A DNA stretch of 64,000 nucleotides. It comes from a virus. Its lineage: Duplodnaviria > Caudoviricetes. The translations under genes and the position numbers were made by a program. The DNA lies in IMG/VR virus record IMGVR_UViG_2974799246_000001, positions 96,001 through 160,000 of that record; one strand, written 5' to 3'. The notes beneath the pieces were generated by a model that was given only the letters and a program-made list of their open reading frames with translations, searched no databases and was not told the DNA's origin. Below, piece after piece: positions 130 to 59,797 of the stretch (the stretch's first letter is position 1; each line of letters starts with the position of its first letter).

Positions 130-141
130 ACAAACTCCTTA

Positions 142-2808
142 TCACATATAGCCCATAGTAATCATGTTCAACATCGGATCGTCCATAAAGATTGGAATCG
201 AATCGAGTGAATGACCAGCAGCAGGACTAGAACCACTATTGCCCGAAGCAGCGGGACGAGATACAGCGCCACCTTTAGGCTGATTAGCAACAGGTGCTGG
301 TGGTGCAGAAGGAGCTGGAGCAGCAGGTGCTTCCGTTCGAGCGATATCGCCCTCTGTTACGAGAGGCTGACGATCAACAGGAGCTTCTGGCTGAACTACA
401 GGCTCGATGCGATTGACCTCAGGAGCTTTCATTAATGCTGTAGGCTCCTGACCACCAAACTGTTCGTTACGCACATTGCGCCGAGCATCGGCCAATGCTT
501 CTGGCGTTGCTGCACGTTGGGTGTCAGTTTCAGGCGGTCGATAGTCAGAAGGTTTATGGCCATCTGCTACCTGTTGAGGCTTCGCAACGTCTGACGGTAG
601 TTGCTCGTTATTTACAGCTTTCTTCTTGCGATCTGCCTCTGCAACCTTAAGCAATACGTCCTTCTCATTCTGCGCTCGTGTCGCCACAGATTGTTGTGTC
701 TGCGCCGAGCTTGATTTGAAGTAACGGTCAGTCGTTGCTGCCTTGTAGTCCTGAATAGTCTTAATCAACTCTTCATCGGACATGCCGTTAACGTCTTTGC
801 CTTGAAGCGCATTGGCGATGACGCTTGTACCTGCACCATACTGCACAGCCGTACTGTACATCAGTTCTTTGACACCAGCACCACGCTTCGTCAAGTCCAC
901 ACCAACTTCGTTCTGCATCTTAGCCACGAGCGGTGCGTAATGAGTACGCGTGATATAGTCGGACTGCGCTTTATCGAAGTCGGCACCTTGAGTATTCGCA
1001 ACATCCTTATAGACGGAGTTGAACTGAGCAGTACCTGGAGCGAGTCCACCGAAACGTTGCAGGAACGGTTTGCCTTCAGGACTGTTCAGGAAGTTCATCA
1101 TGCTGCCGTTGTTCGTAGCGAGCTGGTGCTTACCGTACGACACACCACCAGCATCACCCTGACCAGTAGACACAGTGCCTACACCACGACCACCCGACTC
1201 GAACTGTTCCGACACTGAACCGAGACCGCCTTCTGCAATTGCGCGATTAGCGATATCGGTTACTTGCTTGCTGTCCATACGACGTGCAGGTTGAGCGCGA
1301 GCAAGTCCTGGGAATGTACCGCCACCAGAGCCAGGCATCCCGCCCATACCACCAAAGCCAAAAGGCATAATGACAGGCTGAGGGAATTTAGCTTTGTTCT
1401 GATTCTCTGCGGTAGTGTCGTTATACTCGTCCATCTTCTCTTTGCGGTCTTTCTCACCGTCAGCGAGCATCTTGTCCGATTCGTCAGTAATCTTTTCAGC
1501 GACATATTCGCCTACAGAACTACCGAAGTAGTCACCCAGTATGTTACCAAGCAGACCACCCAACGCAGCACCAGCAGCAGTACCAACAACAGGAACAACT
1601 GAACCGAGTGTACCGCCTATCCATGCACCAGCAATAGCACCAGTAGTACCGCCAGCAGCACCACCGATAGCAGAGCCGCCCGCTTTCTTCTTCTCTTTGG
1701 CCTTCTCTGCATCAGTCAGCGTTTCGTCTGCGTCGATGTGTTGCGTTTCGTTCGCATAAGACAGGCCGTTACCTAATGCAGGACCGATGATAGGAATCTT
1801 CTTCGATGCACCCGCCAGTAGTAGACTCGCGCCCGCTACAGCAGCATCCTGTGTTGCAGATGGAGGCGTTGGTACATCGCCCTTAGCAGCTTCTTCCGCA
1901 CGTTGAACCTCTGGTGCAGTAGGCATCGGTGTGGGCTTTGCCTCAGAGTCAGGAGCAGCCTCGGTCTTCTGGTAATCAGGAGCACCAACACCTCCATTCT
2001 CCGCGTTCTGCTCCTCAAACTTCTCTTGTGATCTGTGCTTCAACCACAAGCCACCAGCCACAGTAGCGCCTAGAGCTAGAGCAAGTCCCAGCTTACCTTT
2101 GAGCTTAGGCAAGCGGCTACGACGAGGTAGATTACGGCCTGGGCCTCTGCGTTCACCGCGATTGCGGCCGTAGCGTCTGCCACGTTTACGACGAGGGCGA
2201 TTATCTTCTGGGCCAAAGTCTGGACCAGCACCGTTGTCAGGCCCGTTATCGTCATTAGCAGAATCATCAGGACCGTTGTTACCGCCTCCACCCGCGCCAG
2301 GCTGATTGCCGTGTGGGTCTGACTTAGCGCGGTTCTTCTCTTTGAATGCTTCGCGCTTCTCCCACTCCAACCAATCTTCAAGGGCTTTCTGCGTCTTCGC
2401 AGATACTGCGTTACCCTCTTTGATTGCGTGAACGATATCTTCACCAGACTTCTCGCCTGCAATAAACAGGTCTTCCAGAGCGGATTCTACTTCACGTGGA
2501 TTAGGCTGTTGTGGTACGGCGCGCGGTGCAGCAGGAGCAGCATCATTGTTCTCCTGCACATAGCGCACACGCGTGTTGGCCATCTTCTCACGCGCAGCTT
2601 TAGCCGCACGGTTCTTAGCCCTTGAGCCTGGACCAACATAAACAATTTCGTCATCAAGCAGTTCGGGATCGTAATCATCCTCAATGTCATTGGCAGCACG
2701 CCGTCTGCGTTTCGGCTTAGGCATACCAGCGACTGAACCACTAATGCTGTCCGCATGTTCGATCATTAGTTCGAGTGCGGTTAGCTCTTTCTCTTTTGGC
2801 TTAGCCAT
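142..2808 (-). CDS. Tape-measure/baseplate-hub-like protein with a lysozyme-like peptidoglycan hydrolase domain
   Basis: 888 aa at the end of the tail module; TM-like segment LGLALALGATVAGGLWL; glycine-zipper stretch; SEQFESGG...DAGGVSYGKHQLAT motif resembling the VgrG3-type muramidase. Confidence 0.7.
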   Translation of the reverse strand: MAKPKEKELTALELMIEHADSISGSVAGMPKPKRRRRAANDIEDDYDPELLDDEIVYVGPGSRAKNRAAKAAREKMANTRVRYVQENNDAAPAAPRAVPQQPNPREVESALEDLFIAGEKSGEDIVHAIKEGNAVSAKTQKALEDWLEWEKREAFKEKNRAKSDPHGNQPGAGGGGNNGPDDSANDDNGPDNGAGPDFGPEDNRPRRKRGRRYGRNRGERRGPGRNLPRRSRLPKLKGKLGLALALGATVAGGLWLKHRSQEKFEEQNAENGGVGAPDYQKTEAAPDSEAKPTPMPTAPEVQRAEEAAKGDVPTPPSATQDAAVAGASLLLAGASKKIPIIGPALGNGLSYANETQHIDADETLTDAEKAKEKKKAGGSAIGGAAGGTTGAIAGAWIGGTLGSVVPVVGTAAGAALGGLLGNILGDYFGSSVGEYVAEKITDESDKMLADGEKDRKEKMDEYNDTTAENQNKAKFPQPVIMPFGFGGMGGMPGSGGGTFPGLARAQPARRMDSKQVTDIANRAIAEGGLGSVSEQFESGGRGVGTVSTGQGDAGGVSYGKHQLATNNGSMMNFLNSPEGKPFLQRFGGLAPGTAQFNSVYKDVANTQGADFDKAQSDYITRTHYAPLVAKMQNEVGVDLTKRGAGVKELMYSTAVQYGAGTSVIANALQGKDVNGMSDEELIKTIQDYKAATTDRYFKSSSAQTQQSVATRAQNEKDVLLKVAEADRKKKAVNNEQLPSDVAKPQQVADGHKPSDYRPPETDTQRAATPEALADARRNVRNEQFGGQEPTALMKAPEVNRIEPVVQPEAPVDRQPLVTEGDIARTEAPAAPAPSAPPAPVANQPKGGAVSRPAASGNSGSSPAAGHSLDSIPIFMDDPMLNMITMGYM

Positions 2809-8199: not shown

Positions 8200-8906
8200 T
8201 AGTCATCGTCCTCTTCTTCTTCTTCTTCCTCTTCTTCGGTCTCCTGAGCCTTAGTTGCACGAGGCCCTAAGTCCATGTCGATTTCAACGTTCTCGGTGAT
8301 CTCACCGTAGTTGTTAATCTTGGCCTGCTCCATGTTGAAACCAATCTTGGTCATGATAGTGATTGGAATCTCCAGTTCGAAACTGCCTGGCGTACTACCT
8401 TCATCGAGGTCATCAATGTTAGGCAGAGGGATAGAGTCATCTATCTTAACGCGCACAGTCCATTTAGCTGTAGGCATTTCAATAGAGAAGCTCATCAGGT
8501 CAGTTAGGCCAGCAACCATTAGCTGTTGTACACACAGCAGCGCCTGATCGATGTTCATGAACTTGAGGTACAGGGAACCTGTAAGAGTGATAGGGAAGTA
8601 GTAGTTCGTTACCACAACGGCATTCGTACCATCGCTGCCTATAGCCCAACCAGAACCGTGACGTGCAATGTTCTTAATGTTCACGGATTCTTCGCGGTTG
8701 AAAGCCATAGTAGGTAGTTTGAACCAGCCGTACGGATAGTCAGTGCTTTGATTGTTCGTTGCACGAATACCCTGCTTCGGGTTGTTATGCACAGACCAAA
8801 CAAAACGCTTTAGGCCGAAGCCTTGTCGGAATTGGCGTTGAAAGCCAAAGATGGTTGCTCGTAACGATGTGCTGTTCTTGAGCAAGCCTGCAACGTTTGC
8901 GCTCAT
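8199..8906 (-). CDS. Putative tail terminator/head-tail completion protein
   Basis: Start re-called to ATG 8906 (GGAG SD; the longer ORF start lies inside a terminator); located between head and sheath genes; acidic tail. Confidence 0.4.
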   Translation of the reverse strand: MSANVAGLLKNSTSLRATIFGFQRQFRQGFGLKRFVWSVHNNPKQGIRATNNQSTDYPYGWFKLPTMAFNREESVNIKNIARHGSGWAIGSDGTNAVVVTNYYFPITLTGSLYLKFMNIDQALLCVQQLMVAGLTDLMSFSIEMPTAKWTVRVKIDDSIPLPNIDDLDEGSTPGSFELEIPITIMTKIGFNMEQAKINNYGEITENVEIDMDLGPRATKAQETEEEEEEEEEDDD

Positions 8907-8920
8907 GTGGAGCTCCAGAG

Positions 8921-8951
8921 ACGAAAAAAGGGCGGCCGAAGCCACCCTTTT
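8921..8951 (-). terminator. Intrinsic terminator closing the head operon
   Basis: GGGTGGC-TTCG-GCCGCCC-TTTTTTCGT on the minus strand (cUUCGg tetraloop). Confidence 0.85.
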
Positions 8952-8970
8952 GGTTACCCGTAGTCGGGTG

Positions 8971-9390
8971 CTAGTCGTCGAGTCGTAAGCGAATCAGAGA
9001 AGACGTGGCGGCAGAGTCGGATTCAACGGTAGCGTCGTCCTCCTCTTCCAGGTCTTCTTCATCGTCAAGGTCTTCATCTTCTTCCTCATCGGAATCGGAG
9101 TTCAGACTGATGATTTCGTCATCGCCATACAATGCAGCGACTTGTTCTTCCTCGGCATTAAGCGCTAAAGCAGCAGATAACGCAGCAACGGATTCGTTCA
9201 TACCTGATGCACTACTCACGGAGTTAACGAGGCATGACGCTTCGAAGTTATCCGTGAGTTCGCAACAAAGAAAGTCCTCAGTGTCTGGCGCTACAGCAGC
9301 TTGAGCAAGCAAGCGGGAAGCATCCATCCACTGTCCGTCACGCGCTGCGACGATTGCCAGTGCAGCTAAGGAACCAGATAAAGTCTTCAT
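8971..9390 (-). CDS. Small acidic head-associated protein
   Basis: 139 aa, D/E-rich C-terminus, several S-x-S motifs, GAGG SD. Confidence 0.65.
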   Translation of the reverse strand: MKTLSGSLAALAIVAARDGQWMDASRLLAQAAVAPDTEDFLCCELTDNFEASCLVNSVSSASGMNESVAALSAALALNAEEEQVAALYGDDEIISLNSDSDEEEDEDLDDEEDLEEEDDATVESDSAATSSLIRLRLDD

Positions 9391-9415
9391 GCTTGGTCCT
9401 CAGTTAGTAGAACAC

Positions 9416-10264
9416 CTATGCGGCAGCCAGATGCGGGTGAAGCATCTCGTCCATCATCGCATAAATCTTATCTTTCGTTCTCAGGCGAGTAGATGAAAGC
9501 GCAGAGTAAATCTGTTCCTTCACCTTAACGCGCTTACGCTCAGGCACCTGCTTAATCAAATGGCCAAGCCGCTTTTGAGCCGCCCATATTGCCCTTTGCT
9601 TAGGAGTAGCATTTGCGTGTCGCGCGTTTGCTTTAGCAGCAATCTTTCCCTTGAACTCAGCAAGATACAAGGGATCACTCTTTATGGTCTGCCACGCAGC
9701 CTTACCTGCTTCCGAGTAAACACGAGAACGATGTTCAGCGAATTTCTTATCGCGTTTGCATCGCTTGCGTGTTTCTTCAAAGCGTACCTTCTTAGTAGCT
9801 TTCATCTTCTCGATAGCAAGCCGTCCGTCCTCAGTAGCGTACTTAGCTAACAGGGCTGCGGACATTTCACGTTTGCGTTTGTCTGTGTACTTTTCGCGTG
9901 GAGCATCAAGTGCCCCCTTACCGCCCGCAGAAAGATTCAATAAAGGACCTCCGTACCGTATGCGTTTAATCTTCGCAATCAGTTCGAACTCTTTATCGTA
10001 GGCTTCTTCCTGCGTATCATAACGATACTTGATTTGGGCGATAGGCTCATAACCTTCATCGAGTAAGTGTCGGAATCTTGCGAGCTTCGGAGTATTGTCT
10101 CTCGTCTGCGCTTGATTCTTCAAGAACTTCGCCCAATGAACGTTGACCCTATCGCCTACACCCTTTCCCACGTAGAACGGCTCATGAGAAAATGTGTTGC
10201 GGCCGTAACGGAATGACCCAGGTCGTCTTGGGTCCATTAGTACATAAACATAATGACGTTTCAT
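9416..10264 (-). CDS. Free-standing GIY-YIG (LEM-3-like) homing endonuclease
   Basis: HYVYVLMDPR...EPFYVGKG...R...E...LLN motif set; basic C-terminal DNA-binding-like region; inserted right after the major capsid gene. Confidence 0.85.
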   Translation of the reverse strand: MKRHYVYVLMDPRRPGSFRYGRNTFSHEPFYVGKGVGDRVNVHWAKFLKNQAQTRDNTPKLARFRHLLDEGYEPIAQIKYRYDTQEEAYDKEFELIAKIKRIRYGGPLLNLSAGGKGALDAPREKYTDKRKREMSAALLAKYATEDGRLAIEKMKATKKVRFEETRKRCKRDKKFAEHRSRVYSEAGKAAWQTIKSDPLYLAEFKGKIAAKANARHANATPKQRAIWAAQKRLGHLIKQVPERKRVKVKEQIYSALSSTRLRTKDKIYAMMDEMLHPHLAAA

Positions 10265-10283
10265 AAAGAGTGATCCCTCGTAT
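9665..10283. repeat. 22-bp inverted repeat pair (9665-9686 and 10262-10283), 21/22 identical
   Basis: Plus strand 9665 ATACAAGGGATCACTCTTTATG versus minus strand 10283-10262 ATACGAGGGATCACTCTTTATG. Confidence 0.9.
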
Positions 10284-10364
10284 GGATAATGAAGAACAAC
10301 TCAAGTGGTAGCGAGTGATACGAGCACTCGCAGAGCTGGCCGGCCTTTTCCCACAAGAGTTGTT
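10277..10364 (-). ncRNA. Structured leader RNA (multi-stem junction with possible pseudoknot onto the RBS)
   Basis: P1 AACAACUC-UU-GUGG / CCAC-UU-GAGUUGUU; P3 GCGAGUG/CACUCGC; loop CUCGUAU is complementary to AUACGAG at 10283-10277. Confidence 0.7.
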
Positions 10365-10398
10365 TATTGCTTTACATCAGTGTTCTAGGCAATCAATC

Positions 10399-11499
10399 CT
10401 AGCCTCGAACAGCTTTTGCGACTGAACGCACGTTCGCCAGAGTGAAGGAGAAGGTGCTAGACAGCAACCAGCCGCGGTCGGTGTTACCCTGGTTAGCGCC
10501 AGAGGTCGGAGTAGACTGGGTGCCGCCACGAGTGGTGTACACTGCGTGGTAGTCCTGGTCAGCCAGAACGTACAGTTCGCCGTCCTGCAGAACGCGGTGC
10601 TCTGGAGCACGGAAGCCGTCAGTTACCAGTTCCATACCCAGCAGGGTACCCAGACGACCGGTGGTGATCAGGTCATACTTAGACACTGGGTCCAGAGCAG
10701 AGCTGAACTGATCGTTACCAACGATATCGTTCCAGTAGTCCTGCGCCATCACGGCAGTGCTTACAGGCAGCGGCCAGCTAGACACAGAATTTTTCAGGGT
10801 AGACAGCAGACGCGGAGTCAGGTCACCGTGAACGAAGGTCATCGGGTTAGCAACGCCGACTGCCTGGTCACAAGCACGTTTCCACAGACGGTCTTCTGCA
10901 ACCATGATAGAAGACAGGCCGTCTTGCTGCGCACGGTCCAGCAGGTCGCCGTTGATCTGGTCCAGGTCCATTTTGCTGACGCGGATGTTGGATTTCAGTT
11001 CGAACTCAGCAGGCGTGTATACACGACCGCGGAACTGGTAGTAACCCATGTCAGAAGGACCGGTCGCGATGATTGCTTCCGCCTGGTGAATTTTCAGTTC
11101 GATACGAGCGATATCGCCCTGACGAACGGTAGCGCCTTTACAAACTTTGCGCAGCAGGCCAGCACGTTCAGCACGGTCTTCGATAGATGCAACGATAGAA
11201 GCACCCAGAGAAGCCCACTTCTCACCAGAGCTGTCAGCCACAGCTTCCTGGAACAGTTCGATCTTCTCTTGCTCTGACAGGCCGCCAGCGTTTGCAGAAG
11301 TAGAGTGAACCAGTTCGCCGTTCTGGAATGCGCCCATCAGCTTAGTGATTTGGCCCAGCAGGTCTTTTTGGCTCGATGCGTTGATCTCACCAGTGGAAGA
11401 GGAAAGCGCCAGCTCACCTTTACCACCAAAACGCAGGTCTTCGATAGGCGCGCCATTACGCAGGGTTACTTTAGCGCCGCGCATTAAAGAGTTGTTCAT
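10399..11499 (-). CDS. Major capsid protein
   Basis: 366 aa; strongest high-expression codon bias; position after protease/scaffold/decoration genes; HK97-like features (AEDRLWK, GRLGTLLGMELVTD). Confidence 0.8.
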   Translation of the reverse strand: MNNSLMRGAKVTLRNGAPIEDLRFGGKGELALSSSTGEINASSQKDLLGQITKLMGAFQNGELVHSTSANAGGLSEQEKIELFQEAVADSSGEKWASLGASIVASIEDRAERAGLLRKVCKGATVRQGDIARIELKIHQAEAIIATGPSDMGYYQFRGRVYTPAEFELKSNIRVSKMDLDQINGDLLDRAQQDGLSSIMVAEDRLWKRACDQAVGVANPMTFVHGDLTPRLLSTLKNSVSSWPLPVSTAVMAQDYWNDIVGNDQFSSALDPVSKYDLITTGRLGTLLGMELVTDGFRAPEHRVLQDGELYVLADQDYHAVYTTRGGTQSTPTSGANQGNTDRGWLLSSTFSFTLANVRSVAKAVRG

Positions 11500-11561
11500 T
11501 AGTTGCTCCTGAGATTAATCTCGTAAGTTTTCAGATACTAAACAGTCACGGTGCGCGACGA

Positions 11562-12269
11562 TTAAGCGCCGTAAGAGGAAGTGGTTTCGATGATCAGGTA
11601 GCCGCGCTCAGTAGTTGGCGCTTGCTTGATGATCAGACCTTTCAGCTCGGTGCCGTTACCACCGATGGTCAGCAGGCCGTTTGGACCCAGGCTTGGGTGC
11701 AGCACGTTGTCAGCAGACCAGTCAGCAGTCGGGTCAAACATAGAGGTAGCAACGTTACCCAGTTTGATGTACGCGATGCGGCCTTCAACGTTAGACGGCA
11801 GACCACCGATAGGAGCATCAGCAGTGTAAGAACGCGCTTCGGTCACGGTCAGTTCGTAAGCATACTGGATGCGAACTTTCTTACCAATGTCGTCAGCGTG
11901 GAAGTACAGGTCAGCACCCTGAACACCGACTTTACCTTCGGCAGTAGGAGCAGCGTTAGCTTCCTGATCTGCTTTAGTACCGTCGATTTTAACCAGCAGT
12001 GCGCCAGCGTTAGGAACGCGGGATGCAGTGAACTTTTTGGTAGCGTCGATAACGAACTCTTCCACACGGTTCATGTTCGCAGGCGGCATAGAGCGAGCCA
12101 GAGCGAAACCGGCGAATACTTCGTCAGCAGCACCAGTAGACAGACGCAGGAAGGAGTGACCGCCTTCGCGAGTCCAAACCAGTGCGACGCCTTCTTCGTG
12201 GATTACTTCACCCGGCAGCAGATCAGCTTCCTGGGTCTGTACGATTGCGGTAGCGTTTTGAAACAACAT
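11562..12269 (-). CDS. Head decoration/structural protein
   Basis: Start re-called to ATG 12269 (GGAG SD); high-expression codons; directly upstream of capsid gene. Confidence 0.6.
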   Translation of the reverse strand: MLFQNATAIVQTQEADLLPGEVIHEEGVALVWTREGGHSFLRLSTGAADEVFAGFALARSMPPANMNRVEEFVIDATKKFTASRVPNAGALLVKIDGTKADQEANAAPTAEGKVGVQGADLYFHADDIGKKVRIQYAYELTVTEARSYTADAPIGGLPSNVEGRIAYIKLGNVATSMFDPTADWSADNVLHPSLGPNGLLTIGGNGTELKGLIIKQAPTTERGYLIIETTSSYGA

Positions 12270-52061: not shown

Positions 52062-52613
52062 TTATCGCTTCTTGGTCCAGTTGGAGTTCTGCTTAGGCTG
52101 CTGGTTATGTGCAGGTGCAGGCGTGTTGTCGTCCTCAATGTCATCTTCTTCATCGTCGATGACTTCTTCTTCCTTTTCAGGCTCAGGCGCTTTCACCTGA
52201 GTATTAAGGACAGAGGCTGCGAGTGGGGTCTGCTGCACAGTATTTACAGTAGCAACAGGCTCTTGCACTGCGGCAGCACGCGCAGCAGCAACTTCACCAA
52301 CAGCGTGTTCGTGGACCATAGCAACAGTAACCAATTGACCTTTCTCTTTCAAGATCTCATCGGCGCGAGCTTGATCCCACTTGTCCCAAAGAATATCGAG
52401 GCCCTTGTGCATATAGTTCATGCCAGCAGGGAGCTTGCCACGACCATTGAACGGCAGACCGTTCGAAGGAGTAGCTGGCTCGAACTCGTCCATCATCTCC
52501 CACTTACGTTTTGCTTCAATACACTTAGGGCCCCAGACGCCGTCACACAAACCATCATAGAGTCCCATCATGGTCATGATAAGCTGGAGCTTCTGGTAGA
52601 ATTTATTGAGCAT
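52062..52613 (-). CDS. Peptidoglycan-binding-domain protein
   Basis: LQLIM..MGLY.G.CDGVWGPKCIEAKRKWE matches the PGBD pattern; no catalytic domain apparent. Confidence 0.65.
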   Translation of the reverse strand: MLNKFYQKLQLIMTMMGLYDGLCDGVWGPKCIEAKRKWEMMDEFEPATPSNGLPFNGRGKLPAGMNYMHKGLDILWDKWDQARADEILKEKGQLVTVAMVHEHAVGEVAAARAAAVQEPVATVNTVQQTPLAASVLNTQVKAPEPEKEEEVIDDEEDDIEDDNTPAPAHNQQPKQNSNWTKKR

Positions 52614-52630
52614 TATGTTTTCCTTGCGGC

Positions 52631-52654
52631 AAATGAAAGGGGCCGAAGCCCCTT
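52631..52654 (-). terminator. Intrinsic terminator
   Basis: AAGGGGC-TTCG-GCCCCTTTCATTT. Confidence 0.75.
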
Positions 52655-52660
52655 ATCTGA

Positions 52661-55600
52661 TTACACTGCCTTGTTCTTGGTAGTGGTCAGTTTCAGACGA
52701 TCAAGAGCCGTCGTCAACTTCTTGATGTTCGTGATGTTGTAGCCTGCTTTCACGATCTTGTTGATACGTGCTTTCGCAGTAGCGACATTCTTCACGAAGC
52801 CAATCCACATACCTGGAGAAACATCGAAGGTACCAAACTTACGAGTGTTCGGAATCTTCGTACCGACGAAACGTTTCATCTGCGGGTTAGTGTTCAGGTC
52901 GAACATGATACGCAGACGATCTTCCATTACCATCGGGTATGCCTTGACGTGTTTCTTATCAGAGGCTGCCTTGTGGCGAATCAGGAAGAACTGTTTCAAC
53001 TGCTCCTGAGCTTTCAACGCCAGTTTGATGTTGAAGCCCATACGCGGCGTAGACTCATCGAAGAAGTCCAGCACGAACTCCAAGCGCTTCTCGGAAGGCT
53101 TGTCGAATGCCAGTTTCTTCTTAACCTCAATGAAATCGAGCATCTTCTCGAAGTCTTCATAGTAGGCACAGTCGTAATACACGTAGTCACCGAACTCCAC
53201 GAAGTCGAATGCCTTGAGGGCTTTCGCATCAGGGTCGGTAGCGTTCGCGTAAATAGCCACGAAGCCGTTGTACACGGTAGGCGTCAGTTCGAGCGCCATG
53301 TCTGCACCAGTCGCTTCTTCAACAGCGGCAGCAACAGGTTTCTTACGACGAGTCGTGTTATCCAACACAGGCAGGTCAGCAGGCTTACGACGACGAACAC
53401 GGCCAGCAGCCTCAGCAACACCTTCGTTGATTGGCTTACCTTCTGCTTTGTTCGTAGCACGTTGTTTGGCGCGAGCGGTCTTACGCGCTACAGCCACAAC
53501 CTTCTTCTCTGTCTCAACGGTATCGGCAGTTTCTGTCTCGTCCTTAATCGTATCTTCAATTTCAATACGATTCGCTTCGGCCGTAGCACGTTTGCGATCT
53601 TTCTCGTTCGCCCACGGTTTACGCGCTTCGAAGAACTTCTTGAGATCAGCCTTGTCGACCTTAGTTGCGATGTGGACTTTGTTGGCAGAAATGCTAACAG
53701 TCTCACCTGTACCAGCCAGACGCACACGCACCGTACTGATAGGACTATCTGCACGGAGTTTGCCGTCAACTGTACGCGCAGTCACAGACACGATAACACC
53801 ATTGCCGTACTCAGTAACGACAGGTGCACGGTTCAGAGAATCTTTCAGGTTCTCACCGTTCGTGAAGTTGCGGTTACGTGTCCAGTCCAGCAGACGCTCC
53901 AGACCCCAGCCGTAGCGATCAGGAATCTTCTGGTTGGCAACAAACGGAGTCTGCTCCATAACACGGAAGTCGTTCAGCGCTGGCGTAGCTGGCAGTGCCT
54001 GCATAGCCGCAACAGTCGTCTTACGCATCTCATGGAATTCCTGAGACTCGATTTCGTTCAGGTCGCGCTTGGCAAAGAAGTACTGGGCGAAGTCTTCCAT
54101 CGTGTTGTTGTCGATGAGCAGTTTCGCACTCATCTTGATCGGGTCCAGTTTGTACTGGTCGAGTGCTTCGTAACGCTGGTTGCCCTTCTCATCGAAGCGC
54201 GTTTTCTCCAGTGTCTTCCACATCAGACGAGCGACCTTACCAACTTCAAGGGTCTTGTTCGTCATTACCCAGTCAATGAACACAACTTCACGAGCCATGT
54301 CGCCTGGCTTACCGTTCTCATCCAGTTTTGCAGCAGCAACGTCAGGACGGAAGATACGCGCAGTAGACTGATCGTAAGTACCTGGTGACCACGGAGTATC
54401 GCAGCGGATGATACGGCTACCCATCTGCATGTTGTGGCCTTCGGAGATTGCCTGTTCGTTCGCAATCAGAATCTGGACATTGTTGTCAGTTTTGAATGCG
54501 TCGAGGTTAGCGTCTTTGTTCTGGCCCAGCTTACCAACTTCACCGTGATACACTACAGCAACTTTCTTGTAGTTCTCAGGCAGAGCGTTGTAGATAGCGT
54601 TAGCCGCACGAACGTAGCGCGTAAAGACAATCAGCTTGCCCTGCACCTCTGGTTTCCAGTAGTCCGGATCGTCCGGAGGCGGAACCATTGAAGGCGGTAA
54701 GGCTTGACGTTTGTACTCTTCGGACTGCTTACGTGCCAGATACTTCTGACCGTTGTAGACAGCAATGTCCAGTTCACGAGGAGTAACGCCTGGCTTCCAG
54801 TCGAAGATCTGCTGTTCACCAACCATCGGGTCACGTTCAGGCTGCACTTCGAAGTGCTTCTTGATACGGTCGATAATGGTCAGCACTTTCGCAGATACGA
54901 AGTTGGTAACACCAGCGGCTTCAAACGTCAGACGTGCAACGTCATCACCCATCGGGTCAGTCAACATCATTTCCATACGCTGGAAGTACATGTTCAGGTC
55001 GGCGTTACCTGCGAGCAGTGCGCCCAGGTCATCACCTTCCTCGATATCGTCTTCGTCAATGTCGGAAGCGTTATCATCAGCGCCACCAGCATCATCGTCT
55101 TCGTCATCGTTACCAGCAGAGGCTTTGCGCTTCGCAGCGTTGGCCGCGTCCTGCAATTTCTCCAGCACCTGTTCGTACATCGCGTTATACACCTCTTGGT
55201 GCAGCGCGGAGTTAGGAACAGACGGGTCATCGATCTCAACCTGAATGAAGGTATCAATCGGGTTAGGCAGCATGAACGCCCAGTGCTTACGCTTGAACGA
55301 GATGAACGCAGTGTGGTTCGCCATACGAGAGTGAGCACGACGAATCATTTCGATATCGTCTTTCGCACCATCATACGCAACGTCCAGTGAATCACCGAAC
55401 ATCGCAGGCGTCATCAGCGCAGCCTGGCCAACGATATCACGCACACGGTCAGTCACCAGCGTACCAGTAGCGATACGAGCATAGCGAACGGACGGAGCAG
55501 TGAATACCGCTTTGGTGTTGAAGTGCACCTGAGAGCCCGCCTGACCACCAGAGAAGTTCTTCACTTTATGCGACTCATCGAGCAGCACATAGCTGAAACG

Positions 55601-58510
55601 GAAGCGGTTAACGAACTCCACAGCACCACGCACACGAACACGCACACCGCCGATATCAACGTTGAACGTACCAGTCTGGAGGAAGCTCAGGCCAACGATA
55701 TAGATCGTGTTGCGCGGAGCCTGCTGGATAACGTCATACATGCGGTCTTCGCCCCACGTATTAACAGTGTCAGCAGTGATAGGCACTGCGTTCCAACCAT
55801 CAACAACTTTGTGGAGGTCATCACACCAGTTCGCTACGAGGTTAGACGGACAGATGATCAGAGGACGAATCGTTTCTTCGCCAAGGTCATCCAGCTCTTT
55901 GATTAGAGCAGCAACGTCGGTCAGACCGATGATTGTCTTACCGCCGCCAGGTGCGATAAAGATTGTTGCGAAGCGTGGACGACGACGCAGAGTTTTGTGC
56001 GCTTCAACCTGATGCGGTAGTAACGCTGCACCTGCTTTCAGACCAGGGATACGGATATCTTCAATCGTGATACCGCTGTCCGGTTTCAGCTTCTCAATCT
56101 CCACTTCGGCCTGTTCGAAGTATTCGAGTGATTTAGGAATCACATCGCTGTACATCGTGGCGAACGGCAGAATGATTTGTTGCAGACGGTCAGAGCCTGG
56201 GGCCTGTTCGTCTTCAATCAGAGAGCTGAACAACTTCTTACGATCACTACGCGCCAGAGCCTGAGTCACCTCACGATACAACGCACCACCGAAGTAGTTA
56301 TTCAGTCGCGCCATGTCAGACAGCTTGGAGCTTTCACCCATCACGAAGTAGTGAGTGTGGTTCGGCAGAGATTCGGTTGCAGCCTGAATGCTACCCATCT
56401 CATTGAGAGAGGTCATAATCAGGTTAGACCCACGCAGACCAGCAGCATCGTTCAGCACACGAAGCATCACGCGCATCATCGTCATTGCAGGGCGTTCGTT
56501 AGCGAGGTCTGGAATTGAGAAGTCGTTCTCAATCAGGTTCTGATACAGGTTCTGGTCCATCGGGCTTTCGGCCAATGAAGCATTCTCTGCGTCCATACCG
56601 ACAGCAACACGCGCCTGCTGCACCAGAGTTTTCAGATCAGGAACTTGTTTGTTCTTGAGCATGAACTCATAGGTCTGACAGGTAGATGCGATAATCTGCA
56701 CCAGCTCATGGAGGTTAGAACCTTCGGTGCTGTTATACTTGATGGTACTGTCTGAGACAGCTTCCACCAGACGGCCAGCGCCAGATTCTGCTTTCGCCGC
56801 TTCGATCATCATGTCGTTAGACACGCGATATGCAGCCATACCACCAGAAGACTGATTGTGGTGGATGTTACCGATTACGTTAGATGCAGAACGGAAGTTA
56901 GGTGCTTCACCAGGCTCTGCGAAGTCGTAGCCAAGTGAGTCAGCAACGTCCAGAGAGTTCGGCGCTTTCATGCCTACGGTACGTGTCTCTTTAACATCGA
57001 GACCGCCACCATTGGACGTGTTCACGATCAGCGCGAAGTCAGGGTCAATGCCGATGCACACGTTACTGAAACGAGAGAGCGACTTGGCCTTGGTCTGCAC
57101 TTCACGGTCGAAGTCCAGATTGCCGTTCTGAATTGCGAACATGTTGGTACGCAGGGTATCGTGCTCGGTAGACAGAGGCACACCCTTTTCGAACAGGTCT
57201 TCGAGTACGCTGTTGAGAGAAGACTCGTAGGTCTTAACCATCTCAATGTCGATATCTTCACGACGAGGCAGCACTGCGAGAGTACCGTTCGGCATGATCG
57301 TCAGACCGTTATCGTCTGCAACCACATCGTTTACCACATAGCCAAACTTCTCACGGAGTTTCTTCAACTCAGGCAGAGTGGTGGCCGAGGTAACGTAGCG
57401 TGGAATACGCGCAGCACGAGTGATACCAGTACGAGTAGAGCCAGCAACACGGAAGTAGTAGCTCGCCCAACCCTGGAACCAACGATACAGACACATGGTC
57501 TGCGTGTCAGCACCCTGAGAGATGTACTCGACCATTTCTTTTTCGAAGTTAACGATCAGGCCGCCTTCAACGCGAACGTCAGTAGCGAGAGCGACAGGGT
57601 TAAAATCGACAGGCGTATCGTGGCTGATTTTCATCGCTTGAATCTTGCGATCAATCATCGCCTTGCCTGGGATAGGACGAATACCGATCGTCATGAAATC
57701 GCCCAGCGCTTCGGCAGCACCTTTGTCCAGATTACGGAACAGGTCGATATCCATGTTGTGCATCAGCGGGTGAATGGAGCGCAGAGCCGCGTTATACACA
57801 GTCCAGTCTTTATCGAGAGGAATGCGGACCATCTTCGTTTCGAATGCGTTGGAGTTGGTGCGCTCAACGCCGAAGATATCTTTGTACAGAGTCTTCGCCA
57901 CACGAATCGCAGCCTGTGCGATATCAGAACTGTAGGTCTGAATGTTGGCGCGTTCGAAGTTGGCGTCATTGTCCACACGAGGACGGTCGCTACCCTGATT
58001 GTTCAGGACGTTGAAGTTACCGTTCGAGGCCAGAGGACTTGTCGGGCATGGCGTACCAGACATGATAATGTCACGACCGCCTGGGAAGCGCGTACTATTT
58101 TCAATCACGGCACCAGATGCTGCGGACAGGTGTTCAGCCAGAGAGGTCTTAATCTCACGACTCAACTTGTCGCCGTTCAGTGACATATTGATACGCATGA
58201 TGGACAGATCGATGTTGTTCTTAACACGCTTAACAAAATCGTCTGGCGCTACTTCCAGCATGTCTTCGAACTCTGCACCGTTGGTAACGATGTAGTTGAT
58301 CAAATCGAATGCGGCGTAGATGCGAGCAACGGTAGATGCGGTGAACACTGCAAGGGTTTCGTAGTTACGACGAGACTTCCCTGTAGCGTACATTTTCGAC
58401 ATTTTACCATCGAACTCGGGCGGCAACGTCTTCACAGCCAGAGCCTGATTAAACGTATCGGCGATCTGCTGGGTTGCGGTTGCTGAGGTACTGATCATTT
58501 GATTCATCAT
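52661..58510 (-). CDS. Giant SNF2-family helicase/ATPase
   Basis: 1949 aa; LLPHQ, APGGGKT, LIICP, LDESH, ATGT, LIVFT, SEGHNMQ, Q..ARI.R motifs. Confidence 0.9.
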   Translation of the reverse strand: MMNQMISTSATATQQIADTFNQALAVKTLPPEFDGKMSKMYATGKSRRNYETLAVFTASTVARIYAAFDLINYIVTNGAEFEDMLEVAPDDFVKRVKNNIDLSIMRINMSLNGDKLSREIKTSLAEHLSAASGAVIENSTRFPGGRDIIMSGTPCPTSPLASNGNFNVLNNQGSDRPRVDNDANFERANIQTYSSDIAQAAIRVAKTLYKDIFGVERTNSNAFETKMVRIPLDKDWTVYNAALRSIHPLMHNMDIDLFRNLDKGAAEALGDFMTIGIRPIPGKAMIDRKIQAMKISHDTPVDFNPVALATDVRVEGGLIVNFEKEMVEYISQGADTQTMCLYRWFQGWASYYFRVAGSTRTGITRAARIPRYVTSATTLPELKKLREKFGYVVNDVVADDNGLTIMPNGTLAVLPRREDIDIEMVKTYESSLNSVLEDLFEKGVPLSTEHDTLRTNMFAIQNGNLDFDREVQTKAKSLSRFSNVCIGIDPDFALIVNTSNGGGLDVKETRTVGMKAPNSLDVADSLGYDFAEPGEAPNFRSASNVIGNIHHNQSSGGMAAYRVSNDMMIEAAKAESGAGRLVEAVSDSTIKYNSTEGSNLHELVQIIASTCQTYEFMLKNKQVPDLKTLVQQARVAVGMDAENASLAESPMDQNLYQNLIENDFSIPDLANERPAMTMMRVMLRVLNDAAGLRGSNLIMTSLNEMGSIQAATESLPNHTHYFVMGESSKLSDMARLNNYFGGALYREVTQALARSDRKKLFSSLIEDEQAPGSDRLQQIILPFATMYSDVIPKSLEYFEQAEVEIEKLKPDSGITIEDIRIPGLKAGAALLPHQVEAHKTLRRRPRFATIFIAPGGGKTIIGLTDVAALIKELDDLGEETIRPLIICPSNLVANWCDDLHKVVDGWNAVPITADTVNTWGEDRMYDVIQQAPRNTIYIVGLSFLQTGTFNVDIGGVRVRVRGAVEFVNRFRFSYVLLDESHKVKNFSGGQAGSQVHFNTKAVFTAPSVRYARIATGTLVTDRVRDIVGQAALMTPAMFGDSLDVAYDGAKDDIEMIRRAHSRMANHTAFISFKRKHWAFMLPNPIDTFIQVEIDDPSVPNSALHQEVYNAMYEQVLEKLQDAANAAKRKASAGNDDEDDDAGGADDNASDIDEDDIEEGDDLGALLAGNADLNMYFQRMEMMLTDPMGDDVARLTFEAAGVTNFVSAKVLTIIDRIKKHFEVQPERDPMVGEQQIFDWKPGVTPRELDIAVYNGQKYLARKQSEEYKRQALPPSMVPPPDDPDYWKPEVQGKLIVFTRYVRAANAIYNALPENYKKVAVVYHGEVGKLGQNKDANLDAFKTDNNVQILIANEQAISEGHNMQMGSRIIRCDTPWSPGTYDQSTARIFRPDVAAAKLDENGKPGDMAREVVFIDWVMTNKTLEVGKVARLMWKTLEKTRFDEKGNQRYEALDQYKLDPIKMSAKLLIDNNTMEDFAQYFFAKRDLNEIESQEFHEMRKTTVAAMQALPATPALNDFRVMEQTPFVANQKIPDRYGWGLERLLDWTRNRNFTNGENLKDSLNRAPVVTEYGNGVIVSVTARTVDGKLRADSPISTVRVRLAGTGETVSISANKVHIATKVDKADLKKFFEARKPWANEKDRKRATAEANRIEIEDTIKDETETADTVETEKKVVAVARKTARAKQRATNKAEGKPINEGVAEAAGRVRRRKPADLPVLDNTTRRKKPVAAAVEEATGADMALELTPTVYNGFVAIYANATDPDAKALKAFDFVEFGDYVYYDCAYYEDFEKMLDFIEVKKKLAFDKPSEKRLEFVLDFFDESTPRMGFNIKLALKAQEQLKQFFLIRHKAASDKKHVKAYPMVMEDRLRIMFDLNTNPQMKRFVGTKIPNTRKFGTFDVSPGMWIGFVKNVATAKARINKIVKAGYNITNIKKLTTALDRLKLTTTKNKAV

Positions 58511-59004
58511 TCACCCAGTTTAATATAGTTGTCGATTACAGACGTCCACACTCCAGGTACAGGCAGGTTTCGGTCAGCAGCGATATCAGAAAGCACGATA
58601 GCCAGTGCGTAAGCACGAAGCGGTTCGAGGCCTTCAAACTTATCACGCGTAAACACAGACGTGAGTTGTTCGTTGGTCAGCGTCTGATACTGCGCACGGT
58701 ACTCCGTCAAGTACAGGCGATACTTGCCGTCATCAACAGGAGTAGTGTCTGGTGTGCTCTGCACATACAGCAGTGCTTTACCCAGCGCGTCCAGAAGCAG
58801 CAGCAGATCGTTTTGATCGTACGGCGTAATTTCTGGAACGTTGGAACTGCCCATCAGTTCGAGGACCGAGTCAGGCAGTTGAATAGGCTCTTTCGCCTCA
58901 GAGATGGACTCGATAATCCCTTGAGCCGCATTTGCGTAGCGCTTATCGCTCGTCGCAATGCCAGACAGCAAGGAATGGAGCCGCGTATTTACGTCGTGCG
59001 TCAC
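58507..59004 (-). CDS. Hypothetical protein
   Basis: Start re-called to GTG 59004 (AGGAG SD), which removes the overlap with the upstream gene. Confidence 0.6.
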   Translation of the reverse strand: MTHDVNTRLHSLLSGIATSDKRYANAAQGIIESISEAKEPIQLPDSVLELMGSSNVPEITPYDQNDLLLLLDALGKALLYVQSTPDTTPVDDGKYRLYLTEYRAQYQTLTNEQLTSVFTRDKFEGLEPLRAYALAIVLSDIAADRNLPVPGVWTSVIDNYIKLGE

Positions 59005-59014
59005 GGTTCTTCTC

Positions 59015-59797
59015 CTAGATAAAAATGCTCTTGACCAGAGAGTTGAGTCGCTTTTCCACGGCGTGTCGTTTGTGTGTCGAAAGGAAACAACACATACGGC
59101 GCGACTGTAGATGCAGCGCAATGGCATTGCCCTTGACGCGAGCGCAGTCAATCCCAAGGTCAATGTTCCACGGATGCCAAGCACGAGGTGCAAGCATCAC
59201 CTGTTGGATGTTCGGATAAGTGTCCATCAATACAGGAATCGCAGACTTTGCCAGTTTCTTGGTCAAATTATCAGTTTTGAACAAAGCCTTAGGCTGTTTG
59301 TTCGAAAACCAGTACGGAACCTGCTTGTGGAGTATCTCCCCGACTTTAGGAATGCCACCACGAGTAGTCTGAGGCACATACACCAGATAGATATCGATCG
59401 TGGTGTTGATGCAGTTCGCTACGCGGTTGTAATCGCTGTTAGTACGCGAATGCACCTCGGCCAGTCTGAACTTATTGCTGAACTCGATACGCTGCAACCA
59501 CTGGCGCAAGTCCTGATGCTGCAACTTGAGAAGGACACGGGCCTGCTCAAGAGAATGCTTAGTCACAGACGGGACTGGACGTATCAGATACTTCGTGGTA
59601 GTCTTAGACAGCGAGGACATGAAGCCTTCAACAACACGCTGCATACCAAGAGGCTGCGGCAGTGAGTGAAAGAGATCGACTGCGGTTTGGGTTGTGATGT
59701 ACGAACCCCACGCCTCAATATACTCAGGGTCAATGCAGTCTGGGAAAGCACGTAGGTTCAATCCTACTTCGGAGCCATATGTTTTCAAACGACTCAC
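59015..59797 (-). CDS. Hypothetical protein
   Basis: 260 aa, GGAGG SD, GTGA overlap. Confidence 0.6.
   Translation of the reverse strand: MSRLKTYGSEVGLNLRAFPDCIDPEYIEAWGSYITTQTAVDLFHSLPQPLGMQRVVEGFMSSLSKTTTKYLIRPVPSVTKHSLEQARVLLKLQHQDLRQWLQRIEFSNKFRLAEVHSRTNSDYNRVANCINTTIDIYLVYVPQTTRGGIPKVGEILHKQVPYWFSNKQPKALFKTDNLTKKLAKSAIPVLMDTYPNIQQVMLAPRAWHPWNIDLGIDCARVKGNAIALHLQSRRMCCFLSTHKRHAVEKRLNSLVKSIFI

Follow-up and report, generated by a model that had tools for sequence, protein, structure and literature searches.

In the hok/sok system and in the MS2 maturation gene, translation is possible only from non-equilibrium or processed RNA, and a distant complement closes the initiation region when the RNA is finished. 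The fbi element of hok lies at the 3' end and is trimmed off to activate the mRNA, with an antisense RNA involved; the complement of the MS2 maturation gene lies upstream. In ColIb-P9 repZ and in pseudoknot riboswitches, the loop of a leader hairpin pairs with bases at or next to the Shine-Dalgarno (SD) sequence. The T4-type homing endonuclease genes I-TevI, I-TevII, I-TevIII, segB and Aeh1 mobE carry hairpins that sequester the ribosome-binding site (RBS); their complementary strand lies close by on the upstream side, and transcription from a late promoter within the hairpin yields a shorter, translatable RNA (PMC2988022). An internal complementary sequence (ICS) in E. coli gnd, at codons 67-78 and about 200 nt downstream, has been proposed to repress initiation, and both of its strands are conserved (bioRxiv 10.64898/2026.10.22.760973). 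In B. subtilis, initiation is blocked and decay promoted when anti-SD-like sequences located several hundred nt downstream pair with the RBS (PMC12697547). Such long-range anti-SD sequences are depleted from natural genes, and 8-mers were used in the reporters (Gill et al. 2025, PMC12697547).

The locus described here resembles the T4-type genes in that a phage homing endonuclease gene lies in a host polycistronic transcript with RNA structure, here predicted, over its SD (PMC2988022). It differs from them in that the complementary strand lies 550-700 nt downstream in the gene's own coding sequence (CDS), and no sigma-70-like internal promoter was found. Because this strand is inside the CDS, every full-length transcript carries it.

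The window that we analysed is a stretch of 64,000 nt from a 265-kb viral record; in GenBank, the nearest relatives of this record are jumbo phages of Erwinia amylovora (genus Alexandravirus). Its major head (capsid) protein gene (10399..11499, minus strand) is an ORF of 366 aa, annotated as major head protein in RefSeq relatives, and the protein is 100% identical to the capsid protein of phage Alexandra. Next to it we found an insertion of ~1 kb, a leader plus an ORF (9407..10404, minus strand), delimited by alignment boundaries and by flank-only matches in relatives. In an alignment with pEa_SNUABM_28 and Alexandra, it stands in place of a short intergenic GC hairpin. Since the insertion is absent from the relatives and its ORF encodes a 282-aa GIY-YIG protein, we regard it as a free-standing homing endonuclease cassette. 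The endonuclease gene was missing from 48 of 48 GenBank relatives, all of which match both flanks only, and 13 metagenomic loci carry it in the same slot, which amounts to a presence/absence polymorphism at one fixed intergenic site of otherwise collinear genomes. Homology to the phages without the endonuclease gene resumes at the RBS of a downstream 139-aa gene (8971..9390, minus strand) that is conserved in relatives. We also observed that the final capsid codons are recoded synonymously beside the insertion, GTTCGAGGCTAG (10399-10410) against GTTCGCGGCTAA or TGA in relatives lacking the endonuclease gene (compared with L001 and L002, around 1590-1602). Judged from the sequence, this is the type of change expected near a homing endonuclease cleavage site or in a co-conversion tract.

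The capsid gene, directly upstream, would be the expected origin of read-through transcripts entering the cassette. An earlier, sequence-only reading of this DNA had seen no terminator between the capsid gene and position 8951. A simple terminator scan agreed, listing none on the minus strand from 10399 to a hairpin at about 8947-8922. That hairpin, which the scan also missed, is a GC hairpin followed by a T-run (8922..8947, minus strand), and by direct reading it is the first canonical terminator-like structure past the capsid gene. No sigma-70-like promoter was found in 8800-11700, leader included, with a sigma-70 model only, and the phage may use other promoters.

The endonuclease ORF (9416..10264, minus strand, 282 aa) is single-copy in the 265-kb genome, and a 134-nt leader separates it from the capsid gene. 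It matched the Pfam family LEM-3_GIY-YIG (PF22945; E 4.6e-12, residues 5-142). Across 18 homologues Y5, Y7, Y31, G33, R39, H43, E92 and N110 are invariant, marking conserved nuclease-core residues, and the conserved N-termini of these homologues confirm the ATG at 10264-10262 as the start. It is an intact homing endonuclease gene of the LEM-3-like GIY-YIG type, with cleavage and homing predicted. A protein search returned full-length homologues at 90, 87, 85, about 44 and 31-38% identity. DNA was compared for 13 full-length loci (a count that leaves out P0007, P0011, P0013, P0015, P0016 and P0017), which form seven sublineages (A, B, D and C1-C4) at 31-90% protein identity; lineage A comprises the window, L006, L008 and L009, and lineage B is at 44%. 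A gene for a major-head-like protein of 364-371 aa lies immediately upstream in 13 of 13 loci, and the capsids of the host phages are 47-100% identical to that of the window. At L012-L014, L093-L101, L018 and L095 the same post-capsid slot holds diverged members of this GIY-YIG family, with capsids 47-51% identical to the window's. The comparison suggests that the family has either long been specialised on the post-capsid site or been transferred repeatedly between phage genera. A locus search with the family-specific C-terminal half of group C alone found no more than a known member in metagenome contigs, and nothing in viral contigs.

The sequence-only reading had pointed out that this gene carries an antisense copy of its own RBS and start codon, with 21 Watson-Crick pairs and one wobble, and had called a chance match very unlikely. 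Our analyses confirmed each of these points. A repeat finder recovered the two arms, 9665-9686 and 10262-10283, as 22 nt each, 95% complementary and 575 nt apart. The initiation arm, ATACGAGGGATCACTCTTTATG (10262..10283, minus strand), starts with ATAC just upstream of the SD GAGG (10279-10276), continues through an 11-nt spacer and ends at the ATG (10264-10262). The internal anti-initiation arm, CATAAAGAGTGATCCCTTGTAT (9665..9686, minus strand), occupies CDS positions +578 to +599, where it encodes (T)IKSDPLY, 250 nt ahead of the stop codon. The one pair that is not Watson-Crick, G10279 with U9669, is G:U in the mRNA sense and C/A on the opposite strand. A search allowing at most 3 mismatches found just the two sites, and none of 100 dinucleotide shuffles gave a match.

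We then compared the gene with the other long ORFs of the window, 52 in all. None of the others forms so long a contiguous helix of its initiation region with its CDS (22 bp here; at most 13 bp in the other 51) or has so favourable a core duplex energy (-36.6 kcal/mol here, against a mean of -21.4 and an sd of 4.7). The duplex is also present in the minimum-free-energy fold of the 1001-nt mRNA. The next-strongest ORFs, 141-2808 (minus), 52106-52742 (plus) and 58506-59127 (minus), reach -28 to -31 kcal/mol on the core measure with helices of 9-10 bp, which is probably background. An extended pairing of about 40 bp, from -38 to +11, was rejected as a measure: with RNAduplex (52 x 80 nt) the median of the other genes was -33 kcal/mol and this gene ranked fifth. 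As the extended pairing is not above background, we relied on the core helix alone. In lineage A and the C lineages, GAGG and ATG stand 11 nt apart according to the leader sequences; for enterobacterial initiation regions this distance is rather long, and it may reflect a deliberately weak initiation site.

For every homologous locus we searched for the 40-nt CDS window that pairs best with the gene's own initiation region (-25 to +5), with no prior site assumed. One outstanding internal partner was found in 13 of 13 full-length loci, at -30 to -43 kcal/mol, with the next-best site at -16 to -19. The alignment of homologues that the earlier reading had proposed as a check thus came out in its favour: all 13 keep the complementarity, with compensatory changes and a relocated internal arm. 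The initiation regions vary by lineage (...GAGGGATCACTCTTTATG, ...GAGGGATCATCTCTTATG, ...GAGGGAGCATCCCAAAATG, ...GAGGCGTTTCAACAAATG), and the partner lies at one of three CDS positions, about +553, +578/+590 or +676 to +697. Within lineage A both arms are identical. Lineage B has the spacer ATCATCTCTT in place of the ATCACTCTTT of A, and in the same alignment column its internal arm reads AAGAGATGAT instead of AAAGAGTGAT, matching the B spacer; the codons at this column spell RRDDPSK in B and IKSDPLY in A. In lineage D, GAGGGAGCATCCCAAAATG pairs with a segment at about +553 that includes an invariant Trp codon, and in lineages C1-C4 GAGGCGTTTCAACAAATGAC pairs with the codons of an RLGHLLRR motif at +676 to +697. 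The core helices measure 22 bp in A, 20 bp in C1, C2 and C4, 11+10 bp in C3, 15 bp in B and 12+7 bp in D. Because the partner, the initiation sequence and the partner's position have all changed and the pairing has nevertheless been kept, this is very probably a selected long-range RNA lock. These comparisons of sequence show the complementarity to be real, selected and tied to the initiation region.

Covariation was counted on MAFFT alignments built without reference to the pairing, with slid helices as controls. In the helix shared by A and B, 92% of cells were paired (slid controls, 38-57%); four adjacent pairs had changed on both sides and two pairs showed G:C/G:U exchanges. In the C helix, 94% of cells were paired (slid controls, 33-46%); both partners had changed in one pair and a single partner in five others, all five being wobble-preserving. 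Three of these five one-sided changes fall in LLRR(F/L) codons and include non-synonymous changes of R to K and F to L. A shuffle control on the C alignment was not significant (113 of 500), because the sequences are few and similar. Few sequences and few independent events lie behind these counts; the four adjacent pairs that distinguish A from B may represent a single event. The gnd ICS is the closest functional analogue: there too, a stretch of the CDS is complementary to the RBS region of its own gene and both strands are conserved; here they also covary. Unlike in gnd, the distance is about three times longer, the cover runs from the SD through the AUG, and there are up to 22 contiguous pairs; furthermore, gnd is a housekeeping gene, whereas the gene here encodes a mobile nuclease.

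Conservation of the internal arm was also seen at the nucleotide level. The longest invariant run in the CDS of lineage A, 38 nt (+576 to +613; 9651-9688), contains the arm, which has 0 of 22 variable columns compared with 23.6% over the whole CDS. The arm of lineage B is likewise invariant, as are only 23 of 831 windows of the same length. Some 55 GIY-YIG genes that share the nuclease domain only showed nothing above background, the sole exception, L018, being a full-length family member. Eight further genes that share the leader had no internal anti-initiation arm, with pairing at background. Together these control genes gave -7 to -25 kcal/mol and contiguous helices of at most 14 bp, and some 65 endonuclease genes outside the family lack the internal partner. 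Both the leader motif and the lock are also absent from L004, a distant GIY-YIG gene. Unlike the short reporter sequences of Gill et al. 2025, a full anti-initiation segment is thus kept by selection in a natural gene family.

Partition-function folding of the seven lineages, which is pseudoknot-free and describes equilibrium only, predicted that the SD-AUG region is paired to the internal arm with a probability of 0.91-1.00 in the full mRNA. For a transcript that stops 20 nt short of the arm, the predicted probability that SD-AUG is unpaired was 0.35-0.47; for the full mRNA it was 0.00-0.09. In these models the region closes only once the arm is present, and the helix prevails in the equilibrium ensemble predicted for the full mRNA. 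We further asked which strand the changes favour. The core helices contain 8 G:U wobbles in the mRNA sense against 3 A/C mismatches, and in lineages A, B and D stability favours the sense over the antisense duplex by 4-17 kcal/mol. In C this energy difference is neutral, so the strand specificity rests on the wobble counts and on the link to SD and AUG. The complementary stretch spans SD to AUG in all lineages, whatever its sequence.

The proposal of an RNA-level fold-back over the RBS is well supported by the kept complementarity, by the arm being the most conserved part of the CDS and by the closure of the ensemble when the arm is present. On the strength of these alignments and folding models, we consider it very likely that the 22-nt copy is the 3' strand of a selected helix that acts in the mRNA to close the RBS. 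The downstream anti-SD sequences that act in vivo (PMC12697547) and the gnd ICS are in line with this view. The helix would bury the SD, the spacer and the AUG of the endonuclease mRNA and so form a translational self-lock. With the arm 550-700 nt downstream, the initiation region would be free only on nascent RNA, or briefly when an elongating ribosome unwinds the arm. A timer, in which translation proceeds only until RNA polymerase passes the arm, is a reasonable inference. Little nuclease would then be made, and its amount would hardly follow the very strong late transcription that reads through from the capsid gene. One point counts against the lock: if it is as stable as the models predict, it would sit poorly with making enough enzyme. 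Conceptually, hok/sok and the MS2 trap are relatives in which a distant segment closes the initiation region of a toxic or dose-sensitive gene. Unlike in hok, there is no removable 3'-terminal element here, and a promoter scan for an antisense RNA found none; because the arm lies inside the CDS, its removal would truncate the protein, so trimming cannot activate the mRNA.

The lock would act on top of a leader that is common to other homing endonuclease genes. RNAalifold and pair counts defined a structured leader at 10295..10364 (minus strand; the same strand holds for all its parts). It consists of an outer stem, P1 (10364-10351 with 10308-10295), with 9 of 10 pairs changed on both sides; a nearly invariant 20-nt motif, GAAAAGGCCGGCCAGCTCTG (10350-10331), found exactly in 21 IMG/VR loci; and a hairpin, P2 (10331-10325 with 10317-10311), with 5 of 7 pairs changed on both sides. 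The 7-nt P2 loop, CTCGTAT (10324-10318), is complementary to the SD flank. Its target, ATACGAG (10277..10283), would form a putative pseudoknot over the first SD bases and at the same time makes up the 5' end of the long-range arm. Loop and target are paired in 100% of cells in 12 sequences, with 3 of 7 pairs changed on both sides (CTCGTAT/ATACGAG, CTCGTAC/GTACGAG, CTAGTAC/GTACTAG, TCGCAC/GTGCGA). All lineages have three leader elements in common, a covarying stem, a single-stranded motif GAAAAG(G)CCGGCCAGCYCTG and a hairpin with a loop of 6-7 nt. ColIb-P9 repZ likewise has a leader loop complementary to the SD flank; the leader here differs from repZ and from riboswitches in having its own 20-nt motif, in being linked to homing endonucleases and in matching nothing in Rfam 15, a scan of which over 9300-10500, with E up to 1, returned no family. 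In the literature we found no relevant description of a pseudoknot motif in homing endonuclease leaders.

The 21 exact loci in the IMG/VR scan compare with fewer than one expected by a rough estimate. The motif also precedes homing endonuclease genes of other types, which encode GIY-YIG proteins of different architecture and with NUMOD3, a protein resembling I-HmuI, and a DUF723 protein. When we looked for a partner of the motif within its own RNA, the energies did not exceed background and the positions were inconsistent. The idea that the motif is a general phage promoter was rejected, there being one exact copy in the 265-kb genome. A leader RNA with the stem, the motif GAAAAGGCCGGCCAGCYCTG, an SD-complementary loop and a UAC/UAG junction was observed before diverse phage homing endonuclease genes; the leader also occurs at L106, L108, L110-L112, L117, L119, L121 and L124-L126. 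Because MAFFT misaligned the loop and initiation columns of 17 diverse leaders, we used a permutation test instead, in which the longest match of a loop was 6.35 nt to its own SD flank and 3.17 nt to those of other genes (17 leaders, 13 distinct loops). As the leader precedes other endonuclease genes that have no arm, it is a general cassette module, with the arm an extra layer of the post-capsid family. It may be an uncatalogued RNA element by which endonuclease cassettes can be recognised in phage metagenomes.

How the leader and the long-range helix fit together differs between lineages. The loop target overlaps the helix by 1-3 nt in lineages B, C and D and by 7 nt in A. With so small an overlap in B, C and D, the pseudoknot and the helix could form together; they abut in most lineages and so could jointly cover about -22 to +4. 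In lineage A, going by the sequence, the two would compete for the 7 nt. A broader and tentative reading, which we hold to be possible but on balance improbable, is that the arm is one strand of a multi-state riboregulator. The leader would then be the domain that senses or recruits a trans factor, be it protein, ribosome, RNase or small molecule, and that decides on SD release; the post-capsid family would have added an intragenic second lock. If true, this would be an uncatalogued class of cis-regulatory RNA dedicated to phage mobile nuclease genes.

The duplex could also serve mainly as a signal for processing or decay and not as a simple steric lock, since a helix of at least 20 bp between distant segments would be an RNase III-type substrate. 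RNase III requires about two helical turns, and the stems of rRNA precursors form across more than 1 kb. Cleavage would free the capsid message with the leader at its 3' end and irreversibly destroy the endonuclease mRNA. The core helices are indeed long for plain SD occlusion in A (22 bp), in C1, C2 and C4 (20 bp) and in C3 (11+10 bp), but the uninterrupted helices are shorter in B (15 bp) and D (12+7 bp). The cassette replaced the post-capsid hairpin of relatives without the endonuclease gene, so a substitute 3'-end structure would be useful, and long-range anti-SD pairing promotes mRNA decay in vivo (PMC12697547). The helix, however, always covers SD and AUG, which a pure processing site does not need. 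We therefore judge it unlikely that processing is the main role, although such a role is compatible with a translational lock and not exclusive of it.

We think it far less probable that the arms act as DNA, as half-sites of an inverted operator to which the endonuclease or some other protein binds, giving transcriptional autorepression. The inverted DNA sites of one protein would covary too, and I-TevI represses its own promoter via an operator that resembles its homing site (PMC2988022). The earlier reading had listed paired operators as an alternative, and here they found no support: the arms, the motif and the leader matched the locus without the endonuclease gene no better than shuffles did (p 0.5-0.96; 240 nt around the insertion site). 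Operators also fit poorly with a complementary stretch that always runs from SD to AUG whatever its sequence, with an internal copy relocated to three CDS positions, with one-sided changes that all preserve wobble pairing in the mRNA sense, and with adjoining leader stems that covary as RNA. The scan, moreover, found no sigma-70-like promoter in the leader, though the phage may use others. That the arms delimit a DNA segment prone to inversion, as the earlier reading had also considered, or to recombination, or that they are a chance match or recent duplication without function, is hardly credible even though the window holds a near-perfect 22-bp inverted repeat: all 13 assembled members have the coding orientation, flipping would destroy the ORF, the arms are short, differ between lineages and form an imperfect repeat outside the window's lineage (15 bp, or 12+7 bp), the shuffles and the 52-ORF comparison exclude chance, and a recent duplication cannot explain different yet matched arms at 31-44% protein identity.

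The proposed translational self-lock bears on a problem common to homing endonucleases: their expression must be only as high as spread requires, so that the carrier is not harmed. Directly upstream of this family lies the late gene that a jumbo phage transcribes most heavily. In T4-type phages the known answer combines local hairpins with promoter choice; here the silencing strand would be written into the CDS 550-700 nt away. Selection keeps the pairing even though the proteins share only about a third of their residues, and the arm has been re-created at different codons. RNA structure also constrains amino-acid choice in the nuclease. The family thus offers a natural, phylogenetically supported case of long-range mRNA self-pairing, which works in reporters and is generally selected against in bacterial genes, and a compact system for how co-transcriptional timing and ribosome traffic set protein output.
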